Notes: generated by a model not told the origin, from the letters alone. 32,000 bases of DNA from Candidatus Brocadia sp. (GCA_021650915.1 CP091279.1:1110001-1142000), one strand, 5' to 3'. Positions 8,714 to 31,392 are shown, counted from the stretch's first letter. Program-made: numbers and translations.

Positions 8714-9964
8714 ATGACAGCAATTTTAACCGTCGAATCAGCTTCAAAACGATACCGTATACAGCGGCATCGTCCTACTTCCATCAAAGATTCCATAATC
8801 GGGCGCCTCAAAGGCCTTCACCGCAAAGATAATTTTTTTTGGGCATTGCGTGATGTCTCCTTTTCCGTGGAACATGGGCTGAAACTCGGCATCATTGGCC
8901 ATAACGGTGCGGGAAAAAGCACCCTCCTGCGATTGCTGTGCGGTTTGGGAAGACCTACCACGGGGCGTATTCACTGCAAGGGTCAGGTGAGTGGTTTGCT
9001 CGAACTGGGAAGTGGATTTCACCCCGACATGACCGGCCGTGAAAATCTTGTAACTGGAGGCATCCTGAGCGGCCTTACCAAACGCCAGGTACTGGCAAAA
9101 CAAGAAGAAATCATTGCCTTTGCTGAACTTGAAGAATGTATCGATCATACGGTCAGAACGTATTCGAGCGGTATGTACTTGCGGCTTGCCTTTGCCGCGG
9201 CAATCCATTTTGACCCCGATGTGCTAATCATTGATGAAGTGCTGGCCGTTGGCGATTCTCGTTTCCAAAAGAAGTGTCTCGAACGGTTAGCAGCCTTTCA
9301 AGCAAAAGGGAAAACCACTATCCTGACGTCGCACGATACCGAACAAATCCGCAATTTGTGTGATGAAGTTCTGGTCCTGGAAGAAGGACGAGCCGTAATG
9401 CTGGGAGATCCGGAGAAGGCACTTCAGTGTTACAACGATTTAATGCGTCAGCGGACGGAGAAGAGGGCTGCGCTGCTATCCGGCGGGGCAACCCAAACCA
9501 ACCTGGTGGTCGAGCATGGCAGCCGTATGGGTACCCTGGAAGCATCCGTCTGCGCTGTCCGCCTGTATGATACTCAGCGCAGGGCTACGAATACCATACA
9601 CAGCGGCGACAGCCTGATCATTGAGCTTGAATATCGCCTTACAAAACCATTGCCCGATGTCGCCCTTACCCTGGGTATTTATACCGAGGCCAATACAAAA
9701 TGTTTTGAATTCTGTGTAGCCTCAGCCGTCACAACCGTCGGATCGTTAACCAACGCGGGCAGATTACGCTGTCAGCTGCCAGAACTGCCTTTGCTCCCCG
9801 GCCTCTATTACCTTAATATCGGGCTTTATCCTCCTGATTGGAACTACGTATACGATTATCACTGGCAAATGCACCCCTTGCACGTGCTGAGTGCCAGCGA
9901 AGGATATTCCGGGATTTCCGGAGTAATCTCAGTGAAGCCTGTCTGGTCTGTTGTAAAAGAATGA
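8714..9964 (+). CDS. wzt: Polysaccharide ABC exporter ATPase with C-terminal glycan-binding-type extension (Wzt/TagH-like)
   Basis: Walker A GHNGAGKST, signature YSSGMYLRLAFA, Walker B VLIIDEVLAVGD, H-loop ILTSHD. A further ~170-aa beta-rich C-terminal extension (..GTLEASVCAVRLYDTQ..SLIIELEYRL..LTLGIYT..) sits where Wzt proteins carry their carbohydrate-binding domain. AGGAG at 8704-8708 precedes ATG 8714; the track uses GTG 8708. Confidence 0.85.
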   Translation: MTAILTVESASKRYRIQRHRPTSIKDSIIGRLKGLHRKDNFFWALRDVSFSVEHGLKLGIIGHNGAGKSTLLRLLCGLGRPTTGRIHCKGQVSGLLELGSGFHPDMTGRENLVTGGILSGLTKRQVLAKQEEIIAFAELEECIDHTVRTYSSGMYLRLAFAAAIHFDPDVLIIDEVLAVGDSRFQKKCLERLAAFQAKGKTTILTSHDTEQIRNLCDEVLVLEEGRAVMLGDPEKALQCYNDLMRQRTEKRAALLSGGATQTNLVVEHGSRMGTLEASVCAVRLYDTQRRATNTIHSGDSLIIELEYRLTKPLPDVALTLGIYTEANTKCFEFCVASAVTTVGSLTNAGRLRCQLPELPLLPGLYYLNIGLYPPDWNYVYDYHWQMHPLHVLSASEGYSGISGVISVKPVWSVVKE

Positions 9965-9965
9965 A

Positions 9966-12371
9966 ATGAAGAGAAAAGAGCCACGTCATATTCTTCTGGT
10001 GGAAGCCTATGAAGGTTGTATCGGGTATCTTTCTGACGATCCGGATGAAAGGAAATCCCTGCAAGGACTCGGTCTGCCGGTCGAAGAGATTGCAGAACGA
10101 CTTGATTGCCGGATTACTCTCCTGTGCTGGGACACCTGGTATCGCTATGAAGAAAAAGAAACCTCGCTGCCAACACCGGCGACACGACCAGTATTACAAC
10201 CCGATTTCGGCCAACCGTCCGCTGTCTATACCTCCGCAAGGGTGAGACGGGTTCCCATTCCCGCGCGAGACCCCGTTTACTGCCTTCCCTTTGATGTCAA
10301 GGGTTTCAGCCCCCGCTCGCATGGACTCATGAATGATAGCGGGTTGCTTTTTTTCGCCTCATACTGTTTAAGCAAGGAAATTCAGGCGCTTTACCGCACA
10401 GACCCCTTTCAGTCCATCATCGTTCCCCTGTGGGGTGGACTGGGATATGTTTCCCAGATGGCAAAGGCTAGCGTGGTTCCTCACGCAGTCAATGTGCCTT
10501 TCGTCGTTGTCGTTACGGATAAATCCGTTAACCGTCAGATGGCGAATCAGGAAGGAACCTGGACCCGTCATGCAGTTATCTTACGTCAGATGGAAGATGT
10601 CTCGCTTGCTTTGGCCGATATGACCCTGGTTTTCGGACCCAGAGGGAAGGAATTTGCCGTTGCGGGCAGGCTGCCAGAGTCACATCCTCCGGTTTGCGCA
10701 CCCCGCTGGATTGAAGATTCACTGCTCGACAAAATCGCCCGTGCATCAGAACAACCCGCGGATACTCACCGGCCGTTACAATTCTTTCTCTATGAGCCTC
10801 AACAGGCATCGTCAGGAGCGCTGACCGCCCTGGACGCCGTCAACCTCTTGGCAAGTAAAGGAACGCGTTTTGATCTGCCGGTAATCAGCGCCGGACCACC
10901 TATGGTCTTTGCCCCCATGAAACCGAGAGAGTTCACTGATTACTGGTCGTCTCGCGGATTCGCCCGCGAACTCGTCCGTGAACGTCAATGGGAATGGAAG
11001 AGAGAATATCCCCACCTTAACCAGGTTTTCCCCGTGCGTCTTTATCCAAGCTTTTTCGATTATCTTCCCAATGCTTGGGCTGAACTCGCCCGGGGTTCTC
11101 TGGTCCTTCTTTCACCAGCGGCCGCTGAGGGAATGGCGTTCGGAGAAAATATTCCCCGGGAAATCCTCATTCAGGGAGACCCGGCGCCAGAGAAAGTGGC
11201 AGATTGTTTGGAAAAAATCGCAGGCACCGACGTCAAAAAGCTCGACGAGATCAGACGGGAGTTGTGTTTACGGGTTGTCCGGTCACATCGCGGAGAGGAG
11301 CGGCAACGACTTATCAACGATACTTCCGTAGCCCTTGAACAACTTTTACAATCCCCTCCAAAACCACAAGACCTGTCGCGGATAGCCACCCTGTTTTTTG
11401 ATCGTCGTATACCACTTCGAACGCTCGCACAGACAGACAACCCCCCTCCCATGCCTGAACCGGGACCGGGCACAAAGAAAGGAACACTATCCGTCGTTGT
11501 TACGTGCTACGAAATGGGTTCTCTGATTCGTGAAACCATGGAAAGTGTCTGGACATCAGAGCGTCAGCCCGATGAAGTGCTGCTTATCGATGATGGCTCA
11601 TACGGAGACGAAACCCTCACGCATATTCAGGAACTCCAAAGGCATGCCGCTGAGAAAAATCTTCCCCTTCAGGTTATCCGGCAGAGGAACCAGGGGTTGG
11701 CTTCCGCCAGAAACACCGGACTCAGTGCAGCACACGGGGAATTCATTTCTTTTCTTGATGGCGACGATATCATCGAATCCCCGTTCTACCGGCTAGCGCT
11801 TCAGATTCTTGAAAGGTACCCTCGTTTGGGTGGGGTTGCTGCATGGGCCACCATCTTCGGCACGGAGATTCCCGATGGTTTCTGGAATGCCCCGCAGCCG
11901 GAATTCCCTTTTCTGTTCATTGAGAACAGCATAGTTGTTCCCTGCCTGACCCGTACCGAACTCTTGCGCAACCTCGGCGGTTACGATACCCGCCAACGGT
12001 ATAATTACGAAGATTGGGAGTTAGGCATACGCATGCTCTCTTCTGGTTGGTCGATTGTTACGATCCCTATGCATCTTCTCCGTTACCGGATCCGTACCCA
12101 GTCCCTCTACCGAAGCATGACTGAGGTGCAAAACCAAATTATGAGGGAACTTTTGTTGAGTACGCACCGGGAAACGGTTTCCAAATTTGCCGTTGAAATC
12201 GCTATGCAATTGGAAAATCTTTGGAAGACGTCCGTTTATTCCAATTCAGTTTCTTTACCCCCTGCCCAAAGCCAGAAGAGTGACACTTCTTTTCAGAAAA
12301 TGCTTGCGAAGGCATTGAAGAAATTTCTTTCACGGTTATTCTCCTACAGAGAGGATTCATCTCTTGTATGA
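9966..12371 (+). CDS. Two-domain glycosyltransferase: N-terminal GT4-like (GT-B) + C-terminal GT2
   Basis: The N-terminal half is homologous to the GT4 half of the next gene: PLWGGLGYVSQ vs PLGGIGTYVTH; LRQMEDVSLALADMTLV vs KRLEDYSIASADALLC; PSFFDYLPNAWAELARGS vs PSRWENFPNTCVEAMSSG, giving DX7E in place of EX7E. The C-terminal GT2 shows VVVTCYE..LLIDDGS..ARNTG..FLDGDDI..YEDWELGIR. Its ATG lies 1 nt after the wzt stop. Confidence 0.8.
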   Translation: MKRKEPRHILLVEAYEGCIGYLSDDPDERKSLQGLGLPVEEIAERLDCRITLLCWDTWYRYEEKETSLPTPATRPVLQPDFGQPSAVYTSARVRRVPIPARDPVYCLPFDVKGFSPRSHGLMNDSGLLFFASYCLSKEIQALYRTDPFQSIIVPLWGGLGYVSQMAKASVVPHAVNVPFVVVVTDKSVNRQMANQEGTWTRHAVILRQMEDVSLALADMTLVFGPRGKEFAVAGRLPESHPPVCAPRWIEDSLLDKIARASEQPADTHRPLQFFLYEPQQASSGALTALDAVNLLASKGTRFDLPVISAGPPMVFAPMKPREFTDYWSSRGFARELVRERQWEWKREYPHLNQVFPVRLYPSFFDYLPNAWAELARGSLVLLSPAAAEGMAFGENIPREILIQGDPAPEKVADCLEKIAGTDVKKLDEIRRELCLRVVRSHRGEERQRLINDTSVALEQLLQSPPKPQDLSRIATLFFDRRIPLRTLAQTDNPPPMPEPGPGTKKGTLSVVVTCYEMGSLIRETMESVWTSERQPDEVLLIDDGSYGDETLTHIQELQRHAAEKNLPLQVIRQRNQGLASARNTGLSAAHGEFISFLDGDDIIESPFYRLALQILERYPRLGGVAAWATIFGTEIPDGFWNAPQPEFPFLFIENSIVVPCLTRTELLRNLGGYDTRQRYNYEDWELGIRMLSSGWSIVTIPMHLLRYRIRTQSLYRSMTEVQNQIMRELLLSTHRETVSKFAVEIAMQLENLWKTSVYSNSVSLPPAQSQKSDTSFQKMLAKALKKFLSRLFSYREDSSLV

Positions 12372-16824: not shown

Positions 16825-17530
16825 ACAACATGCGAAGGAGCAGAAAATGCTAATGGAAAGGCTAATCACAGATAATCCACAATTCCATTCTTATAAAGGT
16901 ACTTTTACAAGTTGGGCCATTAACCCCAATACTTTGAACTTTCTCTATAGCATGCTGACTCCAGGCATGTCAACCCTCGAGACGGGTTGCGGACAAACCA
17001 CCGTTGTCTTTTCTATTGCTCGTACGAAACATATTTGTATCACACCGGATCAGGGAGAAGCTGAACGAGTAGACCAATATTGTACGAAATTAGGTCTTGA
17101 GAAAAATATAACTTTCGTAATTGATAGTTCAGATGCAGCCCTTCCACAGGATGGACTAATACCTTCGGAATTAGATCATGTTTTCATTGATGGTGCACAT
17201 CGCTTCCCTATAGCGATCATTGACTGGTATTACACCGTACGCAAGCTAAAGCTGGGCGGTATTGTAAGCGTGGATGATTTCAAAATACCATCAGTGAAAA
17301 TATTATACGATTTTTTGTGTACTGAAGAAGAATGGGAATTAATACGGGTTATGCACAATACGGCATTCTTCAAAAAATTGCGAGAACCAATGAATATAAA
17401 CGATTGGAGCGGACAGAAAATCAATTTATCATATCAAACCAGTGCGAGAGGTTTCGGAAAAAAAGGTTTTATCCGTAAGTTGATACTTCCTCAGTTCGAA
17501 CGAATATTAAAGGGTAAAAACCATGGATAA
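16814..17530 (+). CDS. Class I SAM-dependent methyltransferase (Methyltransf_24-like)
   Basis: Motif I LETGCGQTTVVF, and later HVFIDGAHRFPIAIIDW. An alternative start at ATG 16847 is preceded by AAGGAG (16836-16841). Its stop overlaps the radical-SAM ATG (ATGGATAA at 17523-17530). Confidence 0.75.
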   Translation: MGNKQHAKEQKMLMERLITDNPQFHSYKGTFTSWAINPNTLNFLYSMLTPGMSTLETGCGQTTVVFSIARTKHICITPDQGEAERVDQYCTKLGLEKNITFVIDSSDAALPQDGLIPSELDHVFIDGAHRFPIAIIDWYYTVRKLKLGGIVSVDDFKIPSVKILYDFLCTEEEWELIRVMHNTAFFKKLREPMNINDWSGQKINLSYQTSARGFGKKGFIRKLILPQFERILKGKNHG

Positions 17531-18587
17531 AAACAATCGCTTGTTTTGTTCAAAGCCATTTACGTGGTTCGAAATTACTCATTTAAATAAAATTGGAGAG
17601 GTATTTATGTGTTGTCCAGCTTGGCTGGATACATCCATAGGAAATCTACAAGATCAATCAGTTCAAGAGATATGGAATGGTAAAAAGGCACAGGAAATAC
17701 GGCGCTCGATCCTGGATGGATCATTTACCTATTGTAATCACTCCAGATGTGCTTTTCTGCAAACAGTATCTGGGCCAGTTGCAAAAGTCGAAGACGTTAA
17801 AGATGAAGATTTACATGCCGTAATAGAAAAGGAACTTACGATCTTGCCGTATGGTCCCCGGCAAATCATTTGTACCTATGACAAATCTTGTAACCTATCC
17901 TGTCCGTCCTGCCGTACAAAATTAATTATTGAACGCAGAAATAAGAAACAGATATTGAAAATTCAAGATAAAATTCAAAATGAAGCCATTCAAGATGCTT
18001 ACTATTTGCATATTACGGGTTCTGGAGACCCTTTTGGCAGTCCATTTTTTAGGAAATGGTTGCAAACGATGAAGAGAGAGGATATACCAAGGGTTAAAAT
18101 CATACATCTACAAACAAATGCCCAGTTATGGACACCAAAAATGTGGGGTACCATAGCGAAAGACATACAACACCTGATAAAAAATGCAGATATTTCAATT
18201 GATGCAGCAAATCCTGAAACATATGCAATAAATCGCAGAGGCGGGAGTTTTGAAAGACTCCTCAATAATCTCGAATTTATTAGTACGTTACGTAAGAACG
18301 GTCCCCTGGAATGGGTGGGTATAAGCATGGTCGTTCAAGAAAACAATTTTCGAGAGATGCCTGATTTTGTGCGTCTCGGTAAGCGTTTTCATTTCGATAC
18401 CGTCTATTTCAGCCAATTGGTAAATTATGGAACATACTCTGAAGAAGAATTTAGAAATCGCGCAATTCATTTTCCTACTCACTCAAGATATTCAGAGTTT
18501 CTTGGTATCCTGAAGGATGAAATCTTTCATGACCCATTAGTCCACCTAGGAAATCTAACGGAAACGATGCGCCGTAGTGATAAGTAA
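17523..18587 (+). CDS. Radical SAM enzyme with N-terminal twitch/SPASM-like cysteine motif
   Basis: CX3CX2C is present as SCNLSCPSC, followed by ITGSGDPFGSPFF (GGE-like). Upstream of the core, C-x15-G-x4-C (CSKPFTWFEITHLNKIGEVFMCC) matches the CX9-15GX4C half-motif of SPASM/twitch domains, followed by YCNHSRC. Confidence 0.8.
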   Translation: MDKNNRLFCSKPFTWFEITHLNKIGEVFMCCPAWLDTSIGNLQDQSVQEIWNGKKAQEIRRSILDGSFTYCNHSRCAFLQTVSGPVAKVEDVKDEDLHAVIEKELTILPYGPRQIICTYDKSCNLSCPSCRTKLIIERRNKKQILKIQDKIQNEAIQDAYYLHITGSGDPFGSPFFRKWLQTMKREDIPRVKIIHLQTNAQLWTPKMWGTIAKDIQHLIKNADISIDAANPETYAINRRGGSFERLLNNLEFISTLRKNGPLEWVGISMVVQENNFREMPDFVRLGKRFHFDTVYFSQLVNYGTYSEEEFRNRAIHFPTHSRYSEFLGILKDEIFHDPLVHLGNLTETMRRSDK

Positions 18588-18732: not shown

Positions 18733-20502
18733 GTGGTAACAGAAGGATACGCAACCCCAGACTGGGAAGTAGTTGATTACCAAATGTATTGTTTAGATCC
18801 GGAAGTAATTGATCGTCAAACCAATACTGGCTTACTTCTAAGAGGACCCAAACCTCAACATTTAGAAAAGGGCAAATATTTTGTATGTATTGGTGCCGCG
18901 CAAACTTTCGGACGTTTTTGTGAAAAACCATATCCAACGCTATTGCAAGAAAGACTAAATGTAGTAACATTAAACCTGGGATACGGAGGCGCTGGACCAT
19001 CCTTTTTCTCGAAAGATAACGATAGACTGCTAAAATACATAAATAATGCAAGGTTTGCTATTATACAGGTTATGTCAGGAAGATCTGAAAGCAACTCATT
19101 ATTCGAGAGTAGAGGTTTGGGATTTTATACGAGAATATCTGATGGTACTTCAATTGGATGCGATGATGCCTTTAGAGAATTGCTAAAAGAGAATGACAGA
19201 GATTACATAAAAAAAATCGTTGCGGAAACAAGGCATAATTGGGTAAATAACTATAAAGAACTCTTAGAAAAGATTACAATTCCTAAAATATTGTTTTGGT
19301 TTTCGGTAAGGAAGCCACACTACAGAGAAAAATACGATGATGTCTCTAGTTTATTTGGGGAATTTCCCCAATTAGTTAATTTCCACTTGATTAATCAAAT
19401 AAAAAAGTATTGCAATGAATATGTTGAATGTATAACCAGGCAAGGGTTGCCACACTTACTGGTGAATAGATTTACCGGTGAACCAATTACGGTAGAAGAC
19501 CCATGGGGTGGAAGCTGGAGCAAGAATTGGTACTACCCTTCACCAGGGATGCACAGAGAAGCTGCAACTGCACTTGAACAGGTATGTAAAAAATACCTAA
19601 ATCCAATTGAATTCCATCAGCAATCGAAACCGTCCTTTGTCTCGGGTAAGTGGTTGTTTAAAAAAACCATCATTGACGAAAAATACATTTACTTAAGAAA
19701 TTTATGCTGCTTTCATTTGAAAAACGTTGCTCTTGATCTGGGTATCTTAGGTGGACATACAGATTATTGCAGGTTTATTATTCTTGGAAGAGCAAGATCG
19801 GGTTCAAACTTTTTACGTGGTTTACTCAACTCGCACCAGCAAATTATTACCTTTGGGGAATTATTCAGGGCGTACGATTCCATCGGGTGGGAGTTCCCGG
19901 ATTATGATCAATATTTACAGTCTCGAAGTTTAAGGTCATTTATGCAAAATGACCCGGGCAAATTTTTGGAGGAAAGAGTATTTAAGAAGTTTCCAAAGCG
20001 AATATTGGCGGTGGGATTTAAACTATTTTATTATCATGCCCAGGATGATTCCCGTAAAATTATTTGGCCTTACTTAAAAGACCAAAAAGACATAAAAATA
20101 ATTCACCTTCAGAGGAATAACACGCTCAGGGTGCTTCTCTCTCTTAAGAAGGCATTTCAAACCGATAAATGGACTAATATTACCGGTGAAGAAGAAACGT
20201 CTTCAATTTTACTTGATTATGAAGAGTGTCTCCGAGAATTTACTTGGTCACAAGAAGTTAAAAAGCAGTATGGTGACTATTTCGAGGGTCATCACAAGAT
20301 AGATGTTTCCTATGAAAATTTAAGTAATTATTGTGAGGATGAAATAAAACGTATCCAGGCATTCTTAGGTGTTCAGTATGAAATTGTTAAACCTTCTACC
20401 TTTAAACAATCTAACCAACCTCTTTCTAAATCAATTTCAAACTATTTCGAGTTAAAGGAAAAATTTAAAGGCACTTCGTGGGAAAAATTTTTTGAAGAGT
20501 AA
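18733..20502 (+). CDS. Two-domain protein: N-terminal uncharacterised domain (possibly DUF6473-like) + C-terminal PAPS-type sulfotransferase
   Basis: The C-terminal half has FIILGRARSGSNFLRGLLN (5'-PSB-type loop) and IIHLQRNNTLRVLLSLKKA (3'-PB-type R..N......S). The N-terminal half is ..LLLRGPKPQHLEKGKYFVCIGAAQTFGRF..LNLGYGGAGPSFF..IIQVMSGRSESN... It has a GTG start; the frame opens at 18691 with no ATG. Confidence 0.7.
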   Translation: MVTEGYATPDWEVVDYQMYCLDPEVIDRQTNTGLLLRGPKPQHLEKGKYFVCIGAAQTFGRFCEKPYPTLLQERLNVVTLNLGYGGAGPSFFSKDNDRLLKYINNARFAIIQVMSGRSESNSLFESRGLGFYTRISDGTSIGCDDAFRELLKENDRDYIKKIVAETRHNWVNNYKELLEKITIPKILFWFSVRKPHYREKYDDVSSLFGEFPQLVNFHLINQIKKYCNEYVECITRQGLPHLLVNRFTGEPITVEDPWGGSWSKNWYYPSPGMHREAATALEQVCKKYLNPIEFHQQSKPSFVSGKWLFKKTIIDEKYIYLRNLCCFHLKNVALDLGILGGHTDYCRFIILGRARSGSNFLRGLLNSHQQIITFGELFRAYDSIGWEFPDYDQYLQSRSLRSFMQNDPGKFLEERVFKKFPKRILAVGFKLFYYHAQDDSRKIIWPYLKDQKDIKIIHLQRNNTLRVLLSLKKAFQTDKWTNITGEEETSSILLDYEECLREFTWSQEVKKQYGDYFEGHHKIDVSYENLSNYCEDEIKRIQAFLGVQYEIVKPSTFKQSNQPLSKSISNYFELKEKFKGTSWEKFFEE

Positions 20503-20517: not shown

Positions 20518-23500
20518 ATGAAGGTATCTATCATTATACCAGCTTATAACGCAGCAGGAACCCTGGCTGAGACACTTGAATCCGTCCGTGCCCAGACCTT
20601 ATCAGGTTGGGAGGCAATTGTTATCGATGATGGTTCAACCGATACGACAGCAGCAATTGCCGCGAATTTTGCAGAAAAAGATCCCAGAATCCGTATCGTG
20701 AGTCAACCGAAGGGCGGGGTATCTGCCGCCAGGAACACCGGCATTGCAAAGGCCCGTTACGACTGGCTCCTCTTCCTTGATGCCGACGACTGGCTCCTGC
20801 CACTCCACCTGGAAAAAATAACGCATGTGCTTATTGCAGACGCTACTCTTGACGCCGTCCACTGTGGCTGGGCTAATATTGCACCTGATGGAACCCACTT
20901 AGATGCCGGGTTTTGCTTTCAACTGGGAGACCTCTTTGGTGAATTCGCGAATCGATGCGCTTTTCCGATACACGCTTGTGTCGTCCGTAAGTCAGTTGTT
21001 GAGTCAATCGGTGGCTATGACTCATCACTTATTACCTGTGAAGATTGGGATCTTTGGCAGCGAGTTGCGCGCACGGGCGCCCGCTTTGGCACGATTCAGG
21101 AAGTGCTTTCGCTTTATCGTACACGGCCGGGATCAGCATCAAGAAACAGTTTTCAATTACTCGCCGATGGCATTCTTGTGATTGAGAGAGGGCATGCACC
21201 GGATGCACGGGTACCAAACCCGCGTCCAGAACATGCAAATGGTCAACCGGTGGCGGAAGTTCCCGCTGCTATATTAGAGCAGCTCTGCTGGTGCGCCGGC
21301 ATCTTCCTTGGTGTTGGAAAAGATGCCAGACCTTTGCTTGGCGCAGTGAGAAACATTCGCGATGCCTTGGTCTACGGCAATGCACGCAATATCGCTGATT
21401 ATATCTTAATCTCCTTATCAATCCATGGAGGTCAGCCGCTCGCCGCATGCTACAAGATCTGGCATGGCATTGAGCAGCGTGTCGACGAGTTTCTGCTTGC
21501 CATCGAGGAACAGTCTCAGACTTTTGATTTGGCGAACCGCATTGGCACGGTTCTCAAACGTCTGATCCTGGCACCTCCTGCAACTCCACGACCGCTGACG
21601 ATTGGGAATCTGCATGCGATTCGCGTCGAGGTCACCGAGCCTATAAACGATATTGTCCCTTCCATTCAAGTCAATCGACTCATTTGCAGTATTGAGTTGG
21701 AAGGAACCCATATCGGAACTATCGAACTCCCCGTATGTGACGGCATCGTTCCTGGTCATGTACTCGCCGATGCTATCGCAGCTGACTTCTCTTGGGTAAT
21801 TTTCAAACGTTATTTTGAATGTACAGTACGCCCCAATCTCAGCATGAAACGGAATCAGCTAGGCTTTTCGATTTGGCGGAAAAACCTGTGCCTTGTCGAA
21901 GCGATTCCTGGAAACGAGCACACCGTCGAACAGCAACTCTACGAAAAGGTTGGCTGGACCGTTTTCCTGCAGGAGGTCTTTGGATGCCAGAACCTGCCGT
22001 TGGACGGTTTTTATCAGACGAAGCTGGAGATTCCTTCGATAAAGCATGGTTGGAAGTCATTGATTAAGAAGTTCTGTGCGCGTCATATGAAATCGCATGA
22101 GCGTATTTCCAAACGGAAAGTTAAACCACTGCATTCCGTACCTGGAAACTGGCTTATGGTTGAGATCGCTGAAAGGCTTTCCGATGTAGAAGTTTCTGGT
22201 AAAGAGCTCAATATTGTGTTAACGGTGGGAGGAGTTGTCCTGAATGTCATAATTATTCCTGTTATCGGGAATATCGTTCACCGGAAAGAATTACGAGTGG
22301 CAATCGCCACCACATGCGGACTTGAATTATGTCGTGCTGCGGTTCGTGAGGGTTTGCTTGGCAGACCAATCACAGATAAGCCATTATCACTCCAGAAACG
22401 TCTCGAGGCTAAGTCCCTGGTTATGCAACGTCACGGCGATAGCTCATTATTGAAGGGAGATACTGATATCGTTTTTGTGCCTGGATCTGCCCGCGCCCTT
22501 GACAATTTTTTGTCTTTCGATAATCGCAGTTTAATCCTCGGACGGCATGCATGCGGAAGGATCGGGACCAGCGCCTCACGGCGCGCTATGCTGCCGGCAG
22601 CAACTACCCCAGAACTTATCGATGCCTCTCGAGTGGCTGGTGAACCCGTAATTCAAATTCCAGCACCAGGCGAACAGCCAAGGCATGTGGCCTATGTTCC
22701 AGAACTTGTCTGGTTCCCATCTCCTGATAACCGGACATCTGTTCCAGAATCAAGAGTTTTAAAGAAGACGCATTCTGCAGCCTCTCATACCCAAAACCAG
22801 ATTATAATTACGGGGAACGTTGTTACTGATCGACTTCCGATCCTCATGTATCATCGCGTTGCGCTAACTGCCAAACCTTCGGGTGATCGCTATCGGATAA
22901 CGCCAGAGTCCTTCGAGGAACAACTCAGCTATCTGCGTAATGCCGGGTACTACAGTATCAACCTTGAAGACTGGCATAACGCTATGGAAAAGAACGAACC
23001 GCTCCCGGGCAGAGCAGTAATGATTACCTTTGATGACGGGTATCTCGATTTTCTTACCTGCGCATGGCCACTCTTGAGAAAGTATGGTTTTTTTGCTACA
23101 GTTTTTATTGTGGCAGATCTTGTCGGAAAGACAAATAAATGGGATGAAATTTATGGAGAGGAGATACCATTGATGGGATGGAAAGACATCCGGCGGCTTC
23201 AGGATGATGGGGTTCTGTTTGGCTCGCATTCGGCTAGCCACCCCTATCTCACGGTGCTTCCACCGGAACAGATCGTACGCGAAGGCGCACGGTCCAGAGC
23301 AATCCTTGGCCGTGAATTGGGGATAACGGTTCCGGCCTTTGCATATCCGTACGGAGATGTTGATCCTGTTGTTCAGCACCTTATCGGGGCGTGTGGTTAC
23401 CTCTACGGTCTGTCTTGTCGTGAGGACCTCAGCACCTACCGTGATCCTCTTTTAGCGCTGCCGCGGATTGAAGTGTCAGGCGCCGATAGTTTACAGCATT

Positions 23501-23553
23501 TTATTACAAAGCTTGGTGTTTTGCAATCTCCGGATATCAATACGACAAATTAA
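20518..23553 (+). CDS. 1011-aa fusion enzyme: GT2 glycosyltransferase - unassigned ~500-aa middle - CE4 (NodB-type) polysaccharide deacetylase
   Basis: GT2 motifs: IIIPAYNAA, IDDGSTD, ARNTG, FLDADDW, CEDWDLWQR. CE4 motifs: LPILMYHRV, ITFDDGY, FGSHSASHPYL, AFAYPYGD. No long hydrophobic stretch noticed. Confidence 0.85.
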   Translation: MKVSIIIPAYNAAGTLAETLESVRAQTLSGWEAIVIDDGSTDTTAAIAANFAEKDPRIRIVSQPKGGVSAARNTGIAKARYDWLLFLDADDWLLPLHLEKITHVLIADATLDAVHCGWANIAPDGTHLDAGFCFQLGDLFGEFANRCAFPIHACVVRKSVVESIGGYDSSLITCEDWDLWQRVARTGARFGTIQEVLSLYRTRPGSASRNSFQLLADGILVIERGHAPDARVPNPRPEHANGQPVAEVPAAILEQLCWCAGIFLGVGKDARPLLGAVRNIRDALVYGNARNIADYILISLSIHGGQPLAACYKIWHGIEQRVDEFLLAIEEQSQTFDLANRIGTVLKRLILAPPATPRPLTIGNLHAIRVEVTEPINDIVPSIQVNRLICSIELEGTHIGTIELPVCDGIVPGHVLADAIAADFSWVIFKRYFECTVRPNLSMKRNQLGFSIWRKNLCLVEAIPGNEHTVEQQLYEKVGWTVFLQEVFGCQNLPLDGFYQTKLEIPSIKHGWKSLIKKFCARHMKSHERISKRKVKPLHSVPGNWLMVEIAERLSDVEVSGKELNIVLTVGGVVLNVIIIPVIGNIVHRKELRVAIATTCGLELCRAAVREGLLGRPITDKPLSLQKRLEAKSLVMQRHGDSSLLKGDTDIVFVPGSARALDNFLSFDNRSLILGRHACGRIGTSASRRAMLPAATTPELIDASRVAGEPVIQIPAPGEQPRHVAYVPELVWFPSPDNRTSVPESRVLKKTHSAASHTQNQIIITGNVVTDRLPILMYHRVALTAKPSGDRYRITPESFEEQLSYLRNAGYYSINLEDWHNAMEKNEPLPGRAVMITFDDGYLDFLTCAWPLLRKYGFFATVFIVADLVGKTNKWDEIYGEEIPLMGWKDIRRLQDDGVLFGSHSASHPYLTVLPPEQIVREGARSRAILGRELGITVPAFAYPYGDVDPVVQHLIGACGYLYGLSCREDLSTYRDPLLALPRIEVSGADSLQHFITKLGVLQSPDINTTN

Positions 23554-23593
23554 TTTTCTGCGATATTGATCAAAATAATATCTACGGCAATGT

Positions 23594-26500
23594 ATGAATA
23601 ACCAGTTTGCATCCCCTATAAAGGTATCTGTCATCATACCTGCCCACAACGCCGCGGAAACAATCACCGAAACGCTTGAGTCCCTTCTTGCTCAAACCCA
23701 TCATGCCTGGGAAGCAATTGTCGTTGACGACGGTTCCCTTGATGAAACGAAGGCCATAGCCACAGGTTTTGCTGAAAGAGAACATCGAATTCGCGTTCTT
23801 TTTCAGGCACAGGGCGGGGTATGCGCAGCCCGGAACGCTGGCATTGCAATAGCTCGCTTTGACTGGCTGCTTTTCCTTGATGCGGATGACTGGCTTGCCC
23901 CTGCATATCTTGAGAAAATGACGACCCGTCTCATTTCAGATTCCCGCCTTGATGGTGTATACTGCATTGCGGCACGTATCTCTCCTGAAGGAAAGCTCTA
24001 TGAAGAATTTTTGCTTCCCTCTGGTGATCTGTTTCATGCATTAGCGCGTTACGCAGCATTTCCCATTCATACCTGCGTTGTCCGCCGCTCGTTAGTCGAG
24101 GCCGCCGGAGGCTTTGATACATCGCTCCTGGCATGTGAGGACTGGGATCTCTGGCAACGGATTGTCCGCACGGGCGCTCGCTTTGATGCAGTCCGTGAAG
24201 TGCTCGCATTCTACCGAATGAAACCTAGATCTGCCTCTGTCAATGCCTTCCAGATGTTCAGAGATGGTCTTCGCGTGCTCAAGCAGGGACACTCCCCTGA
24301 CGCACGTGTCAAGAACCCGCATCCAGCCTATGCAAACGGGTTGCCGTCAGATCACCTTCAAAACCAGATATTTTATTTTTTAAGCTGGTGTGCCGGCCTC
24401 TTAATCAGTTACGACAATGATGCCAGGGTACTGCTCGATTCAGTCAGGGAGTACCGTTATCCGGAACTTAATCCGCATGGCGTTGCACAAAACATTTATC
24501 GGGCGACCATTCTGCCCACGGGCCTAACCTTATCTGCCTGGGGCAAATATTGGCAAAAGGTTGAGATTCGTATTCGTGAATTTCTTCTTGCTCTTGAATT
24601 ACAAGCACAGGCTTCAGGGTTGGCTTATCGCGCCAGGACAGCTCTGGAGCGTATGATAGTGGAACACCCATCGGCTTCCCGTCCTCTGACCGTGGGAGCC
24701 ACACACGCAATCCGGATTGAGGTTACCGAGATAATTCCAGACATTTTTCTTTCAGCGAAGGTCGAGCGTCTTTATTGCACCGTCGAGTTTGATGGATCTG
24801 GCATGGGAACGATAGAACTTCCCGTTTGTGATGGACTAGTTCCCAGATCTGTTTTGTCTGATGCCATCGCAGCCGAATTTGCCTGGCCAATTCTCGGACG
24901 ATTCTTCGGGCGTACTATTTACCCTCACCTTCGCATTAAGCGTGAGCGGACAGGATTTTCTATCTGGCGAGAAGCACTGCGCCTTACGAGAACACTTTGC
25001 GAGGATGAACACGTTATCAGACAAAAGATGCATGAACAAATTGGCTGGACAGTTTTTTTGCAGGAGATCTGGGGGCAGCAGAACCAGCCGCTCGATAGTT
25101 TTTATACCGTTGGCGGTAAGGTCTCTTTGAAGAAAAATGATTGGAAGCTATCTTTCCTGAAGTATTACAGACGTTTCTTCAAAACAGGACCAGCATCATG
25201 GCGTGCATTCAACAAAGGCTGGATGATACTTGATGTCAGCGATAAGTTTCATGATATGAAAGTAGAGGGGCAGGAGATTCATGTTGTGCTTACGGTGGGT
25301 GGCGTTGTGCTTGGAACGGTTAACATCCCCGTCAAGAAGAACATCATACGTACCCGGGAACTGCGTGCAGCGCTCACGAAAGCGAGTGGCTTTGAATTAT
25401 GCCGGGCATCTGTCCGTGAGGGCTTGCTGGGTAAGTCATTGGCAGATAATATGGCATCACTTCGGGATCGCCTGTCAGCGGTAAAAAAATCACCGGTGCC
25501 GCATAAGGAATACGACTCACTTTTGAGGACGTGTCGTGATGTCGCCTTTGTGCCAGGAACAGACTTCACCCTTGATCGTGTATTGTCAGCAGGAAATTAT
25601 GGTGTACTTTTTGGGAGGCACCTATATGGCGAGATTGGAACAAGCGCCTCCCGGCGCGCAACGCTACCATCGTCAGTTATTCCTGAACTTATCGATGCTT
25701 CTTCAACAGCTGGTGAGCCGGTAATCCAAGCTTTAGCACCAGAAGAATCTTCCAAACGCGTGCTTTATGTTCCAGAACTATTCTGGTCTCCGACACGAAA
25801 TATGCAGATATCTTCTCCAGAATCACGTGAATCTGAAACGTTCCAGGCAAAGCCTTCGGCGTTTAACAGCCACGACACAGACACAACACAAGCCTTGCGG
25901 CGTTGTAGTCCTCCACACTATAGCGGTAACAAACAAAACATTACGACCCACCAGCTCCCCATCATCAGATACCATCGTGTTGCCCCAGACGGCTTGCCCT
26001 CAGCAGTTCGCTACCGGGTAACGCCTGACGCATTTGAAGAGCAAATCCGTTACCTCCATGATAATGGATACTACAGTATCCGTCTGAAAGACTGGCACAC
26101 TGCTATGGAAAAGAAGAGACCGCTTCCTGGTAAAGCAGTAATGATCACTTTTGATGACGGTTATTTCGATTTTCTCACCTATGCATGGCCCATTTTGAGA
26201 CGATATGGTTTTCACGCCACCGTCTTTCTTGTGGCGGACTATGTTGGGCGATCGGACAGTTGGGATAACGTTTATGGAGAGGAAATACCACTCCTTGGCT
26301 GGAGTGAGATCAGACAACTTCGGGATATGGGGGTTGAGTTTGGCTCCCATTCTGCTAGCCATCCTTATCTCACAGCGCTTTCACCAGAGAAGATCGTGCG
26401 TGAAGGAGCTCGCTCCAGAGCGATCCTGGGACGCGAACTTGGGATAACGATCAGGGCATTCGCATACCCCTACGGCGATGCGGATCATGTTGTTCAGCAT

Positions 26501-26665
26501 CTTATCGGAGCCTGCGGCTATGTTTATGGTTTGTCGGCCAAACAAGACCTGAGTAAGTTCCAAGATCCCCTGCTTGCGCTGCCTCGCATCGAGATTACCG
26601 GTTCCGACAAACTTCAGGACTTCATCGAAAAGCTCAACGTTCGACCCACTCAGGTTGTCAGCTAA
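23594..26665 (+). CDS. 1023-aa paralog of the preceding gene: GT2 - unassigned middle - CE4 deacetylase
   Basis: Collinear with 20518-23553 along its whole length (VIIPAHNAA, VDDGSLD, FLDADDW, CEDWDLWQR ... ITFDDGY, FGSHSASHPYL, AFAYPYGD). It starts 40 nt after the upstream stop. Confidence 0.85.
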   Translation: MNNQFASPIKVSVIIPAHNAAETITETLESLLAQTHHAWEAIVVDDGSLDETKAIATGFAEREHRIRVLFQAQGGVCAARNAGIAIARFDWLLFLDADDWLAPAYLEKMTTRLISDSRLDGVYCIAARISPEGKLYEEFLLPSGDLFHALARYAAFPIHTCVVRRSLVEAAGGFDTSLLACEDWDLWQRIVRTGARFDAVREVLAFYRMKPRSASVNAFQMFRDGLRVLKQGHSPDARVKNPHPAYANGLPSDHLQNQIFYFLSWCAGLLISYDNDARVLLDSVREYRYPELNPHGVAQNIYRATILPTGLTLSAWGKYWQKVEIRIREFLLALELQAQASGLAYRARTALERMIVEHPSASRPLTVGATHAIRIEVTEIIPDIFLSAKVERLYCTVEFDGSGMGTIELPVCDGLVPRSVLSDAIAAEFAWPILGRFFGRTIYPHLRIKRERTGFSIWREALRLTRTLCEDEHVIRQKMHEQIGWTVFLQEIWGQQNQPLDSFYTVGGKVSLKKNDWKLSFLKYYRRFFKTGPASWRAFNKGWMILDVSDKFHDMKVEGQEIHVVLTVGGVVLGTVNIPVKKNIIRTRELRAALTKASGFELCRASVREGLLGKSLADNMASLRDRLSAVKKSPVPHKEYDSLLRTCRDVAFVPGTDFTLDRVLSAGNYGVLFGRHLYGEIGTSASRRATLPSSVIPELIDASSTAGEPVIQALAPEESSKRVLYVPELFWSPTRNMQISSPESRESETFQAKPSAFNSHDTDTTQALRRCSPPHYSGNKQNITTHQLPIIRYHRVAPDGLPSAVRYRVTPDAFEEQIRYLHDNGYYSIRLKDWHTAMEKKRPLPGKAVMITFDDGYFDFLTYAWPILRRYGFHATVFLVADYVGRSDSWDNVYGEEIPLLGWSEIRQLRDMGVEFGSHSASHPYLTALSPEKIVREGARSRAILGRELGITIRAFAYPYGDADHVVQHLIGACGYVYGLSAKQDLSKFQDPLLALPRIEITGSDKLQDFIEKLNVRPTQVVS

Positions 26666-26758
26666 AAGCATGTGATGAAAATTATTATCAACTTTATTTA
26701 CAAATTGTCGTAATATAAAGCCTAATGATTGGAAATCAACAAGGATGATTCAGGGATA

Positions 26759-28084
26759 ATGTTTAAACCTATCAAATTAATAGATATCGAATTGAGCCGT
26801 CCTCTTGTGACCATAGAGGGGCTGTATGGCTACGAGTTATTACAGGCGTTGGTCCGCTTGCATAATACTCCAATTGGGTTTATTAAGGTGCCGGTTATCA
26901 ATGGTCGTTGCACACCAACCGATCTTCGCAGAGCAATTCAGAAACAAAAGACTATCGATAACGCACACCATTTTTTCTCCGATGATCTGTCGGCGTCAGC
27001 GATAACGGAAAATTTACGTATCAATGACCTGCTTAAAGTTCCGCCTCCTGTTTACCCAGGACCACAGCCTCTTGTCACCGTTGCAGTCTGCACCCGAGAC
27101 CGGACCGAAGACCTGCGGCAATGTCTCGATTCTCTCAACGACCTTGATTACCCCGCTCTTGATATCCTGGTTATAGATAATGCTCCCAGGAACGATGACA
27201 CCGAGCAACTGGCTCGCACAACCTTCCCCGGGATACGCTATGTCCTAGAACCCAGACCAGGCCTCGATTGGGCGCGAAATCGAGCCATAACCGAAGCACG
27301 CGGTGAGATTATTGCTTACACTGATGACGATGTAGTTGTTGATCCGGGATGGGTAAAAGCGCTCGTGGAAACCTTCAACCAAAATGATTCGGTGATGGCG
27401 GTAACAGGATTGGTCGTACCGTATGAATTAGAAACCGAGGCACAGATACTTTTTGAACGGCACGGTGGTTTTGGTCGCGGCTTTGTATATAAGGAATACC
27501 GGGCAAAGAAAAAGAATGGCAAGGTGAAGGCGCTTCATCATAGCAGTGTAGGACGATTTGGCACCGGCGCAAATATGGCTTTTCGTAGCAGTTTATTTCA
27601 TAAGATCGGATACTTTGACCCAGCCCTGGATGTGGGAACTGTTACCAACGGTGGTGGCGACCTCGAAATGTTTTTCCGGGTACTGAAAGAAGGATATACC
27701 CTGTGCTATGAGCCACGTGCATTGGTACGCCACAAGCATCGTCGAAACTACCATCAATTGCGGGAACAGCTTACCAATTGGGGCACCGGTTTTATTTCGT
27801 ATTTCATGCGAAGCGCCCTGGCATATCCGGATGAGCGATTTGCCTTCTTCAGGGTATGGTTATGGTGGCTCATGCGGAAGATCCGCCTTCTGTTGATTTC
27901 CTTTACCGGTTCGTCACGTTTTTCACCTGATTTGCTCCTGGCAGAGATTTGTGGATCATTCCTTCTCGGACGCTACCCTAAAGCCAGGCGCACGGCAGCA
28001 AAAATTGCACAGATCTTTGGTTCTGCCACTCAGGTAGTATCGCCAAAAGAAGCCTGTGTTACAAAGGACGATTCACGAACGTAA
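26759..28084 (+). CDS. GT2 family glycosyltransferase with ~100-aa N-terminal extension and hydrophobic C-terminus
   Basis: VTVAVCTRDR..LVIDNAPRND..ARNRA..YTDDDVVVDPGW. The N-terminal extension carries the same ~60-aa module found twice in each giant fusion protein. I prefer ATG 26759 over the track's TTG 26729. Confidence 0.8.
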   Translation: MFKPIKLIDIELSRPLVTIEGLYGYELLQALVRLHNTPIGFIKVPVINGRCTPTDLRRAIQKQKTIDNAHHFFSDDLSASAITENLRINDLLKVPPPVYPGPQPLVTVAVCTRDRTEDLRQCLDSLNDLDYPALDILVIDNAPRNDDTEQLARTTFPGIRYVLEPRPGLDWARNRAITEARGEIIAYTDDDVVVDPGWVKALVETFNQNDSVMAVTGLVVPYELETEAQILFERHGGFGRGFVYKEYRAKKKNGKVKALHHSSVGRFGTGANMAFRSSLFHKIGYFDPALDVGTVTNGGGDLEMFFRVLKEGYTLCYEPRALVRHKHRRNYHQLREQLTNWGTGFISYFMRSALAYPDERFAFFRVWLWWLMRKIRLLLISFTGSSRFSPDLLLAEICGSFLLGRYPKARRTAAKIAQIFGSATQVVSPKEACVTKDDSRT

Positions 28085-29390: not shown

Positions 29391-31392
29391 CTACAGACCG
29401 ACCTGTCCGGATGCGTAAACCTTGGGCGGCGGTTGTTCAGGAAGCGTTAATCCCAATTGTGCCAAAAGGAGTAAAACGTCCTTCTCCGGCTGGGTATAAC
29501 GGCTCATGACAATATGACGGCCATCCGTGGTTGGTAAATGGACGTCTATCATTTGAATGCCCGACAGTTTTTCTAAAATCGCTTCCGACGTCAGCCCTCC
29601 GGCCCTCCCCCGCGCAAGATTGCGCAGCGTCGTGTGGAGACAAAAAGCCAAAAAGGAGACAAAGATATGGGCTTCAATTCTCCGTTCCAGTTGGTGCCAT
29701 AGGGGACGGAGGGAAAGCGATCCCTTCAAGTCCTTAAATGCCTGTTCTATCCGTGTCAACAGCAAATAATTTTCCCAGACGGTTTCTGGCGCGGTGGCCT
29801 GCATGTTGGAACGAAGCAAATAACGCCCCTCGCGCCGATACGCCTGCCTCAGGCGTTCCCGATCCAAACTGAACCGGAACGTATTCTCATTGACCGGTTC
29901 CTGCGGTTTGGGAATGGAGATCGTGACCAGTCTGTAGTCTCGTCCGGCTTCTTTCTTTAACGCGCCAATATGCATGAGCAGGTCATCGCGCGTGAGGGCT
30001 TTTCGATTGCGAAGTTCGCGCAGACCCATCCACAAACGTCTGAGTCTGCGCCTACGCATGGCACGCTCCTTAGACACCCGGTCATGGCTTTCCACGTAAA
30101 CGTAAAACTCCGATTCCTGCCGAAGAACTTTCACGCGGACGCTCTCCCTCGCCCGCATCCAGGTTTGTTCGAGTAGCGGTTTTTCTACTCTCGTCAAATG
30201 CCCCTTCGGAGTCCCAACCAAATAATCAATCCCGCGCTCACGCATCTTTTCCAACATCTCCTCCGTTGGAATACCGCGATCCATAAACCAGGTGCGCCGG
30301 AATTTCCCATACTGCTTTTCAATCCGATCCAGAAATTCCTCCAGCGTTGCGGTGTCTCTGGTATTGCCCGGATACACTTCGTAGGCCACGGGAAATCCTT
30401 CCGGCGTTAACACCAATGCCACTACCACCTGCACGCAATCCGAACGTTTGTCCCGGCTATATCCAAACCGTTTCTTACTCCCCGATCCAGTCGGAGGTGG
30501 GTCACTTTCAAAATACGTACTCGTCAAATCATACAGCAGTACATCGTACTTCGCCCCAAAGAGATTCCCCCACTTCTCCTTTAAATAGACAAACAGCTCG
30601 TCCCGATGCTCAAGCAACAAATCCAAACAACGATACGCCTTGTCCTTCTGCGCCAGGGAATAATCCTCTCCCAGCAGATCGCCTGTTGCGCTGCGCACGT
30701 ACCACTCACGGTGAAAACGAAATTCGCTTCCCGGATCGACAACCGGTAACAGACAAGCGCCTTCAGCATATTCAACCAGCTTGTCCCCTTCCGGCTTGAC
30801 GGCAGACGCATCCTCCAGAATGTGTCCAGTTCCAGCATATTCCATAGCGCGGCACAGCCACAACCAAATTTCCTTTATGAAAGCGGGGAGATTGCTTCGG
30901 AAAAGGCCCCTCGCAATGACACCGGCCATGCACTTTGATGGTACACTGCATGTTGTCATTGCGAGTGAAGCGAAGCAATCTTTCACTCATAAAAAACGGT
31001 ACCTCCTGAAAGGGGTTTGTGAAAAAACTCACAGAAAAAAGAAGTTTTTATACAGTAATACTATACATACAATCCCAACCAGCTCGCTCCCCACTCCCGT
31101 GGATGGCGCAGCTCTATTTTGTCCAATCTCATCCGGACTGTCTCACCATCCGGTATCGGCCTGGCTTCCCGGTCGTCCGGGGAAACAACGCCAGTTGTCT
31201 TGGCCTGGGTTCTTTACCCGACACCGCCTCTATCGTCCGAACCCACCCAGCCCGTTGATTGTCATTGGGTTCTCCCAAAGAGAGAACCTGCCGCTGCACC
31301 ACCCTTCTTCCGCTGATCCGGCGGTTCTCTACCACGCTCCAATAACAGTGGGTTTTTCCATCTTTCGTTCATGTCTTTTCCCGGAGAAACAT
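29391..31392 (-). pseudogene. IS1634-family transposase pseudogene (premature stop, two or more frameshifts, ~220-bp repeat insertion)
   Basis: Core motifs: YDLTSTYFE, GYSRDKRSD, FMDRGI, YLLRSN, IEQAFKDLKG.LSLRPLWH...RIEAHIFVSFLA. The N-terminal part reads MFLREKT*TKDGKTHCYWSVVENRRISGRRVVQRQVLSLGE, with a TGA at 31369-31371. Frameshifts fall near 31179-31182 and near 30736-30745. The repeat is inserted at 30847-31063. The first 47 aa of the 531-aa track ORF are read out of the repeat and are not genuine. Confidence 0.8.
30843..31065 (+). repeat. ~220-bp repeat element, intact copy 2 (inside the IS1634 transposase gene)
   Basis: Near-identical to 8181-8402. Removing 30847-31063 plus one flanking TA joins the transposase codons in frame (...REWGASWLGLYV|WNMLELDTFWRMRLPSSRKGTSW...). 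Confidence 0.85.

Follow-up and report, generated by a model that had tools for sequence, protein, structure and literature searches.

What would two adjacent, thousand-residue proteins, each joining a glycosyltransferase to a deacetylase-like domain in a single chain, do in a locus for glycan export? The question is raised by a stretch of DNA from Candidatus Brocadia sp., an anammox planctomycete (GCA_021650915.1, CP091279.1:1110001-1142000; 32,000 nucleotides in full, here called the window), in which gene A (20518-23553, plus strand; 1011 amino acids (aa); UJS21724.1, annotated 'glycosyltransferase') and its paralog, gene B (23594-26665, plus strand; 1023 aa; UJS21725.1), lie 40 nt apart, as an earlier note on this DNA had described and as a listing of open reading frames (ORFs) confirms. 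The two products share one layout—a family 2 glycosyltransferase (GT2) domain, a helical extension, a domain that we call X, a tether, and a carbohydrate esterase family 4 (CE4) domain. On balance, and reading from sequence, we lean towards A and B being cytoplasmic enzymes that add a sugar and then de-N-acetylate it, with X as the hub, in the assembly of a glycan that depends on Wzm and on a Wzt bearing a carbohydrate-binding module (CBM); the proteins are probably membrane-peripheral. Copies of A and B, identical or at least 90% identical, are present in many Candidatus Brocadia assemblies, so the genes are real, and database annotation calls them merely "glycosyltransferase" or "hypothetical protein."

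That the pair belongs to a Wzm/Wzt locus, another claim of the earlier note, stands. The ABC-2 permease Wzm (7303-8133, plus strand) and the Wzt ATPase with its C-terminal carbohydrate-binding Wzt_C domain (8708-9964, plus strand) are encoded in the same locus as A and B, together with six more glycosyltransferase genes and genes for a Methyltransf_24 protein, a SPASM/radical-SAM protein, and a DUF6473-sulfotransferase fusion.

Both ends of the proteins proved to be of the proposed types, with Pfam matches to PF00535 at the N-terminus and PF01522 at the C-terminus of each chain, and every motif quoted from the sequence could be located (residues in A/B: DDGS 37/45, DADDW 88/96, CEDWDLW 174/181, TFDDGY 837/852, HSASHP 904/919, AYPYG 942/957). 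The GT2 domain of A, which has the GT-A fold and spans aa 1-230 (20518-21207, plus strand), carries the motifs DDGS37, D88-A-D90, and C174-E-D176; its DxD reads D-A-D at 88-90, as does that of B at 96-98, and the PF00535 matches reach 124 bits in A (E 9e-36) and 121 bits in B (E 8e-35) against a cutoff of 23.3. Both are intact GT-A domains of the inverting type and belong with the soluble, non-processive GT2s. A Foldseek search with the full-length model returned GT-A matches to K4CP, WrtF, TarS, TarP, and PmHS2 (E 1e-12 to 1e-14), and the domain is nearest to glycan-elongating GT-A enzymes (K4CP, WrtF, the PglI-like AvpGT, TarS, and PmHS2) rather than to polyprenyl-phosphate transferases—for A, E 4e-25 with K4CP versus about 2e-5 with ArnC. 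Because the nearest characterized relatives use different donors, the donor sugar is not inferable from these matches.

The CE4 (NodB-homology) domain occupies aa 767-1000 of A (22816-23517, plus strand) and aa 782-1016 of B (25937-26641, plus strand), matching PF01522 at E 7e-23 (aa 828-962, 81 bits) and E 2e-26 (aa 842-978, 93 bits), respectively. It is of the PplD/PgaB/IcaB type: it aligned over its full length to PplD (6dq3, E 4e-24), IcaB, and PgaB, its best matches also including 4wcj, 3vus, and 4f9d, and the model, a (beta/alpha) barrel, superposed with template modeling (TM) scores of 0.86 on PplD, 0.80 on IcaB, and 0.76 on PgaB-N. The essential residues of PplD are H105, D167, the zinc ligands D168/H223/H227, and R302, and its subfamily is without the canonical MT3 Arg and MT4 motifs (PMC8807736). 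All six of these residues have aligned counterparts in both copies, in agreement with the claim that the metal and catalytic residues are intact: the metal triad (D840/H904/H908 in A, D855/H919/H923 in B) aligns to D168/H223/H227, and the catalytic His, Asp, and distal Arg (H779/D839/R983 in A, H794/D854/R998 in B) to H105/D167/R302. The CE4 domain is also the most constrained region of the pair, with nonsynonymous divergence (dN) between A and B of 0.20 versus 0.29-0.55 elsewhere.

A crude test combining Kyte-Doolittle hydropathy with the structure model found no signal peptide and no transmembrane helix in A or B, and both chains open directly on the first GT-A strand and therefore have no signal peptide. 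The sole hydrophobic peak, at A 563-588, was considered as a transmembrane helix and rejected, as it is modeled with high confidence as a beta-hairpin and B falls below threshold there. The impression that the proteins have no long hydrophobic stretch was thus correct, and a cytoplasmic location of both catalytic domains is the most likely one. In an older assembly of Candidatus Brocadia fulgida, A and B are each split near the X-CE4 tether (KKO20502-KKO20505), probably by sequencing frameshifts, into pieces named 'glycosyltransferase' and 'PgaB precursor'; the latter name misleads, as neither protein has a signal peptide.

What, then, lies between the two catalytic domains? The roughly 500 residues that had been left unassigned indeed draw no Pfam call, even at E ≤ 1, but they are not a single block. 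A search with aa 231-770 alone recovered 42 relatives; from their lengths and Pfam calls it is clear that the region moves between proteins, and the middle resolves into two parts—an extension of the GT2 domain (aa 231-365) and the portable domain X (aa 366-750). The extension (21208-21612 in A, plus strand), whose five helices span aa 245-351, is present only in GT2-bearing relatives; in the full-length model it forms a five-helix bundle continuous with the GT-A domain, and Foldseek alignments to TarS, TarP, and RmlT reach into it. Domain X, about 385 aa long in A (21613-22767, plus strand) and spanning aa 371-749 in B (24704-25840, plus strand; boundaries in both from jackhmmer), is composed of X1 (aa 366-505 of A), a variable linker, and X2 (aa 533-750). 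The AlphaFold2 (AF2) model of X from A is globular alpha/beta, with a predicted local distance difference test (pLDDT) score of 85.7 and a predicted TM score (pTM) of 0.85. No match to X was found in Pfam (E ≤ 1), NCBIfam (E ≤ 1), PDB sequences (phmmer and profile searches, E ≤ 10), or, with both models, in a Foldseek search of the PDB. X is joined to CE4 by a disordered tether of about 30 residues (A aa 736-763, 22723-22806, plus strand; pLDDT < 50), at the place where most relatives carry a NodS-like methyltransferase.

Each half of X opens with a module of about 58 aa, and X1 and X2 align to one another in hhalign with 95% probability (E 7e-9). In A, the first copy (aa 368-425, 21619-21792, plus strand) consists of three strands followed by a long helix, and the second lies at aa 546-603 (22153-22326, plus strand). 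A third copy forms the N-terminus of gene C (jackhmmer E 7e-13), whose 451-aa product (26729-28084, plus strand) is a GT2 headed by one such module (aa 16-98; window 26774-27022), as identified by Pfam, jackhmmer, and a hidden Markov model (HMM) of the module; more copies head GT2 domains in related loci. The possibility that X is a degenerate GT-A domain headed by the module was rejected, since Foldseek would have detected a GT-A fold. In a comparison of 149 X domains, drawn from many phyla, D418, W426, W480, Q485, E486, E603, R610, E611, R628, R688, and Y726 are each at least 90% identical, and C605 is conserved at 82%; this exceeds what a passive spacer would need and suggests a site of ligand binding or of catalysis, or else a conserved interface. 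As the module is common to X and to GT2s of the same loci, and as the enzymes of ATP-binding cassette (ABC) transporter-dependent glycan pathways form multiprotein complexes among which modules are variably distributed (PMC11231755), a docking or acceptor-binding role is favored, with X as a putative docking or ligand-binding hub. Between X1 and X2 lies a basic amphipathic insertion (A aa 500-540, 22015-22137, plus strand), modeled with low confidence; the linker has a net charge of +10 in A and +9 in B, and the insertion could possibly serve as a membrane-contact helix. One relative that appeared to consist of X alone (P0008), and thus to indicate an autonomous X, was rejected as such, since it lies within a frameshift-fragmented string of GT2, X, methyltransferase, and CE4.

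Global alignment of A and B gave identities of 61% for GT2, 46% for aa 231-770, and 70% for CE4 (55% overall), in keeping with the earlier impression that the CE4 parts are more similar than the middles. The further suggestion that the middle carries a difference in specificity between the paralogs is unsupported: dN is highest in the GT2 helical extension, at 0.55, versus 0.38 in X1, 0.43 in X2, 0.29 in GT2, and 0.20 in CE4. If any region holds such a difference, the extension is likelier to do so than X. Synonymous sites have reached saturation in every region (proportion of synonymous differences, pS, 0.63-0.80) and no run of identical codons is longer than four, pointing to an old duplication without recent gene conversion; on the same grounds, we rejected conversion as the source of the high CE4 identity. 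That identity reflects a family-wide constraint, because another Brocadia protein (P0001) shares 72% identity with A in CE4, about as much as B does. Between A and P0001 the X domains are 46% identical, and CE4 is the most conserved part of the family.

The layout itself is not the exception that it had seemed. When 1.84 billion cluster representatives (clusters at 50% identity) were searched with a profile of X, 500 proteins were recovered at E ≤ 1e-3, of which 337 reached E ≤ 1e-30, so that about 500 clusters from many phyla carry the domain. In a domain census of 192 members, GT2-X-CE4 and GT2-X-MT-CE4 (MT, methyltransferase) were roughly equal in number, the lesser classes being X-MT-CE4, X-CE4, GT2-X, N-terminal-MT-X-CE4, and sulfotransferase-X-CE4. 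A scan of genomes, one per species, placed X in 58 species loci, including those of cultured strains; these span Planctomycetota, Nitrospinota, Nitrospirota, Cyanobacteria, Verrucomicrobiota, Gemmatimonadota, Chloroflexota, Acidobacteriota, Actinomycetota, Bacteroidota, Desulfobacterota, and others. About 33 of the 58 have GT2-X-MT-CE4, the form carried by such cultured strains as Nostoc sp. FACHB-110, Coleofasciculus sp. LEGE 07092, and Haloferula sp. BvORR071, and the form without methyltransferase, to which A and B belong, is in the minority. The methyltransferase between X and CE4 scores 60-89 bits with PF05401 (cutoff 24), well over generic methyltransferase families, and its top PDB match is NodS (3OFJ, E 4e-20); the N-terminal methyltransferase of the N-terminal-MT-X-CE4 forms differs in type, belonging to Methyltransf_23. 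NodS is also the structure closest to the methyltransferase of the O-antigen terminator WbdD (PMC3482155), so that "NodS-like" fits either N-methylation or methylation of the terminator type.

Is the CE4 domain of these proteins kept as an enzyme? We scored the six-residue signature in 149 CE4 domains and found it intact in 45 of 50 forms with both GT2 and methyltransferase, 20 of 24 methyltransferase forms (mostly X-MT-CE4), 32 of 48 GT2 forms, 7 of 19 forms with neither GT2, NodS-like methyltransferase, nor sulfotransferase (X-CE4 and most N-terminal-methyltransferase forms), and none of the 8 sulfotransferase forms; among proteins with a GT2 in cis, the fraction is thus 77/98, and integrity is associated with the presence of that GT2 (Fisher p = 0.002; 7e-7 against the sulfotransferase and GT2-less classes). 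An intact CE4 mainly beside a GT2 and/or a NodS-like methyltransferase supports a catalytic relay, and the persistence of X-CE4 as a chassis with a dead CE4 indicates a non-catalytic role as well; the D839-R983 pair is kept in 146 of the 149 domains. The sulfotransferase-X-CE4 proteins (P0029, P0031, P0032, P0035-P0037, P0132, and P0144) have their zinc ligands replaced, for example by NDGMYR for HDDHHR, and their CE4s are presumably conserved pseudo-deacetylases, kept for binding or structure. We also considered a reading of these relatives as similar to NDST, the heparan sulfate N-deacetylase/N-sulfotransferase, and rejected it because the CE4 metal ligands are lost in all eight.

Genomic context links the family to export. 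Wzm and/or Wzt_C was detected within 10 kb, using home-made profiles, in at least about 30 of the 58 genome loci. Two Brocadia-type loci (L005 and L006) are syntenic with the window, and their A/B slot is filled by GT2-X-MT-CE4, then GT2-X, then a double GT2 with the module at the head of each GT2. An ABC-exporter context is present at L006-L009, and two metagenomic cases adjoin Wzm/Wzt_C. A recurrent cassette consists of Wzm, Wzt-CBM, a module-GT2-module-GT2 protein, and a GT2-X-MT-CE4 protein, and in Nostoc sp. FACHB-110 an operon of five genes encodes three GT2s, GT2-X-MT-CE4, and, as the exporter, a fused ABC_membrane/ABC_tran protein of the MsbA/PglK type. The X domains of A and B are 49% identical to one another and 43-47% identical to those of other Brocadia, whose own pairs are 57-62% identical within a genome; on this identity matrix, A and B were rejected as one-to-one orthologs of those pairs, and the divergence of X proteins in Brocadia looks like serotype-style variation.

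Two of the related loci hold genes worth recording in their own right. In that of a cyanobacterium (L007, GCA_965185665.1), a 690-aa Wzt-Wzt_C-Sulfotransfer_1 fusion (5110-7182) stands directly upstream of the sulfotransferase-X-CE4 gene, and Wzm also adjoins; an exporter with its own modifying enzyme is unusual. On one metagenomic contig (L010), an 880-aa AMP-binding/carrier-protein/thioesterase gene (5102-7744) lies just upstream of GT2-GT2-X-CE4, a possible acylation link, in this single case, for an amine unmasked by the CE4.

How might such a protein work? We propose that the GT2 would add a sugar to a polyprenol-linked glycan, N-acetylhexosamine (HexNAc) being the most economical guess, and that the tethered CE4 would strip the N-acetyl group in cis and so unmask an amine. 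This amine would then be methylated, in most relatives, by the NodS-like domain; A and B are without that domain, so the amine would be left free or be modified in trans. X may hold the lipid-linked acceptor, or may pair the enzyme with other module-bearing GT2s (B and C), and the product would plausibly be a distinctive residue, perhaps a terminal one, recognized by the carbohydrate-binding module of Wzt ahead of export.

Several points weigh against this add-then-deacetylate scheme. The best PDB and NCBIfam matches of the GT2 include glucuronosyl- and other transferases, and given such mixed donors the GT2 need not add HexNAc; another enzyme may place the substrate of the CE4. A third of the GT2-X-CE4 relatives have a degenerate CE4, so coupling of the two activities is not obligatory. 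The Fisher tests relating CE4 integrity to a GT2 in cis ignore phylogenetic non-independence, and the count of genome loci with Wzm/Wzt, coming from home-made profiles, is a lower bound.

As to the glycan, the S-layer O-glycan of Kuenenia is rich in HexNAc and methylated (PMC5088730), and sulfated glycosaminoglycan-like material has been reported from anammox granules (PMC10483923); neither is tied to the A/B locus. A wider proposal, which we regard as rather unlikely, is that the X family represents widespread, coiled-coil-independent capping or terminating enzymes for ABC-exported glycans, each polypeptide producing an unusual amino-sugar end group by chemistry like that of Nod factors, through HexNAc addition by the GT2, unmasking by the CE4, and NodS-type methylation, with X as a new ligand-binding or catalytic hub that docks on module-tagged polymerase GT2s. 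In the Brocadia variant, the methyltransferase would have been lost and, given the DUF6473-sulfotransferase gene and another methyltransferase gene just upstream, the amine could stay cationic or be N-sulfated, which would feed the sulfated glycosaminoglycan-like anammox material.

The deacetylase could instead have its target at the other end of the chain. Under this alternative, which we judge unlikely, X-CE4 would bind (and in A and B also deacetylate) the reducing-end primer N-acetylglucosamine (GlcNAc) of a glycan linked to undecaprenyl pyrophosphate, and the N-terminal enzyme—GT2, methyltransferase, or sulfotransferase—would act distally, making the protein a chain-length gauge or terminator without a coiled coil. 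PplD, the nearest solved CE4, does act on a linkage-unit GlcNAc, the variable N-terminal enzymes are of the kinds that carry out terminal modification, and the terminator methyltransferase of WbdD is NodS-like in fold (PMC3482155). Several invariant arginines of X could bind pyrophosphate, although lipid or pyrophosphate binding by X is putative, and no long coiled coil was seen in any protein of the locus, albeit by a crude test. Retention of dead CE4 domains with their D839-R983 pair (146/149) suggests a binding or structural role, yet CE4 integrity follows the GT2 or NodS-like methyltransferase in cis, a pattern better fitted by a catalytic relay, and the CE4 hangs on a flexible tether of about 30 residues rather than being rigidly placed.

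That X is itself an unrecognized enzyme, acting on the CE4-unmasked amine or on the glycan, strikes us as distinctly unlikely; it might perform a NodA-like N-acylation or, on the pattern of the cryptic kinase of K. pneumoniae O7 ORF6, act as a kinase or some other transferase. X is conserved like a catalytic domain, with about nine polar residues invariant across many phyla and C605 at 82%, but it shows no recognizable nucleotide- or cofactor-binding motif and no fold match, and at E ≤ 1 it resembles neither NodA nor any enzyme family of Pfam or NCBIfam. Unannotated domains of ABC-dependent glycan pathways have proved to be enzymes (PMC11231755); the duplicated 58-aa module, which also occurs as a simple N-terminal appendage of a GT2, is more like an interaction or binding element. 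The family does join NodB-like and NodS-like parts (NodH-like in sulfotransferase-X-CE4) with ABC export, leaving only the acyltransferase step missing, and an acyl-AMP ligase/carrier/thioesterase gene lies beside GT2-GT2-X-CE4 at L010, though this context is a single case. Very improbable, finally, is a non-catalytic, glycan-binding CE4 in A and B like that of the sulfotransferase-X-CE4 relatives, which would make the two proteins plain glycosyltransferases with accessory domains: the loss of metal or catalytic residues in 45 of 149 members, including 8 of 8 sulfotransferase forms, shows that the domain can persist without catalysis, but all six such residues are kept in A and B, purifying selection on the pair is strongest in their CE4, and the model fits PplD at a TM score of 0.86.

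The remaining neighbors of A and B include further candidate modifying enzymes. Directly upstream of A, a 589-aa protein (18733-20502, plus strand) joins an N-terminal DUF6473 domain to a Sulfotransfer_3/Stf0-like sulfotransferase; it may act in trans on the glycan or on the amine, and its gene is absent in the syntenic Brocadia loci L005 and L006, where a NodS-like methyltransferase domain occupies the A/B slot. The radical-SAM protein (17523-18587, plus strand), with a SPASM/twitch region at its N-terminus (aa 16-72) and the radical-SAM core after it (aa 123-284), is kept at the same position in both of those loci, and a radical-SAM enzyme within a Wzm/Wzt glycan locus is unusual. The Methyltransf_24 gene stands three genes upstream of A. 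Following Wzt is an 801-aa GT2 protein, conserved in L006, whose first 505 or so residues (9966-11480, plus strand) match nothing in Pfam. Wzm and Wzt are separated by a gap of 575 nt (8134-8707), and the stretch of about 1.5 kb upstream of Wzm (5777-7302) holds no ORF of 120 aa or more. An IS66-family transposase (4082-5776, plus strand) and a DDE_Tnp_1 transposase (29391-30986, minus strand) flank the glycan locus, as fits a mobile or serotype-variable cluster. A 420-aa ORF (2307-3569, plus strand), unrelated to the glycan locus, has a weak, sub-threshold match to HEPN_AbiA_CTD (E 0.002).

Glycan assembly that depends on ABC transporters is central to the making of O-antigens, capsules, and S-layer glycans, and to its toolkit the X family adds a cytoplasmic CE4, a NodS-type methyltransferase, and a conserved new domain, in hundreds of clusters from many phyla that include cultured cyanobacteria and Verrucomicrobia. 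The interest lies mainly in this widespread domain and in the apparent relay of a cytoplasmic deacetylase, joined in relatives by a methyltransferase. If the relay is true, it would explain how amino sugars with free or N-methylated amines are put in place ahead of export and would offer a handle on the surface and extracellular polymeric substance glycans of anammox bacteria, which are relevant to granule formation in wastewater treatment. Whatever its mechanism, domain X merits definition as a Pfam or InterPro family.

How do A and B compare with known systems? In the literature we found no prior description of the architecture or of X, of a cytoplasmic CE4 in O-antigen synthesis, or of NodB/NodS outside nodulation, and the earlier note's statement that no single-chain GT2-CE4 enzyme was known to have been characterized agrees with this. 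Of its contrast with partnerships between separate polypeptides, the novelty of the single-chain fusion stands; a cytoplasmic CE4 partner is not unprecedented, as NodB and ArnD act in the cytoplasm. The two ends are an ordinary GT2 and a CE4 of the PplD/PgaB/IcaB branch, ordinary except for its cytoplasmic location, and what is new here is the fusion of GT2 and CE4 into a single chain. PplD, PgaB, and IcaB, of the circularly permuted CE4 subfamily, have the same His, Asp-Asp, His-x3-His, and distal Arg as A and B and are likewise without the canonical MT3 Arg and MT4 motifs. These enzymes, whether secreted, anchored in the membrane, or lipoproteins, act outside the cytoplasmic membrane and have no glycosyltransferase fused to them, whereas A and B carry GT2 and X in the same chain and have no signal peptide or transmembrane helix.

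The Nod-factor toolkit comprises NodC (GT2), NodB (CE4), NodS (N-methyltransferase), NodH (sulfotransferase), and NodIJ (ABC-2 exporter), with NodA performing N-acylation; in that pathway, a HexNAc glycan made by a GT2 is de-N-acetylated by a cytoplasmic CE4, methylated by NodS, and exported by an ABC-2-type system. The main form of the X family likewise has a genuine NodS-family domain beside its CE4 and resembles a fused NodB-NodS. The Nod enzymes, however, are separate polypeptides, NodC being a processive membrane GT2, and A and B are fused and have no methyltransferase. No part of A or B matched NodA at E ≤ 1 in Pfam, and NodC was matched only by gene C, weakly (E 8e-6). The Wzt with its CBM points to a polyprenol-linked polymer, unlike the free oligosaccharide of the Nod pathway.

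In the ArnC/ArnD and FlmF2/NaxD systems, a GT2 acts first and an N-acyl group is then taken off at the cytoplasmic face, exposing an amine; the two activities reside in separate proteins whose substrate is a monosaccharide carrier lipid, and the GT2 of A is far nearer to K4CP than to ArnC. NDST unites in one chain a deacetylase and an enzyme that modifies the unmasked amine. The sulfotransferase-X-CE4 relatives are superficially alike, and A and B have no sulfotransferase domain, the sulfotransferase being encoded by a separate gene upstream.

To our knowledge, all characterized terminators of ABC-dependent assembly carry a long coiled-coil ruler, and their caps are methyl, phosphate, or Kdo. 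A crude composition scan found no such ruler in A or B, and only stretches of about 42 aa in two other proteins of the locus; compared with terminators of the WbdD/WbbB type, the place of the coiled coil is taken in A and B by the globular alpha/beta domain X. WbdD, WbbB, and K. pneumoniae O7 ORF6 are modular polymerase/terminator proteins of ABC-dependent O-antigen assembly (PMC11231755), and a CE4 module is not described there, the term being absent from that paper. Like them, A and B are large, cytoplasmic, multi-module proteins in Wzm/Wzt-CBM loci, combining a glycosyltransferase with modifying modules and unannotated domains, and it is plausible that GT2 and CE4, with the NodS-like methyltransferase in relatives, install a terminal cap that is read by the Wzt CBM.

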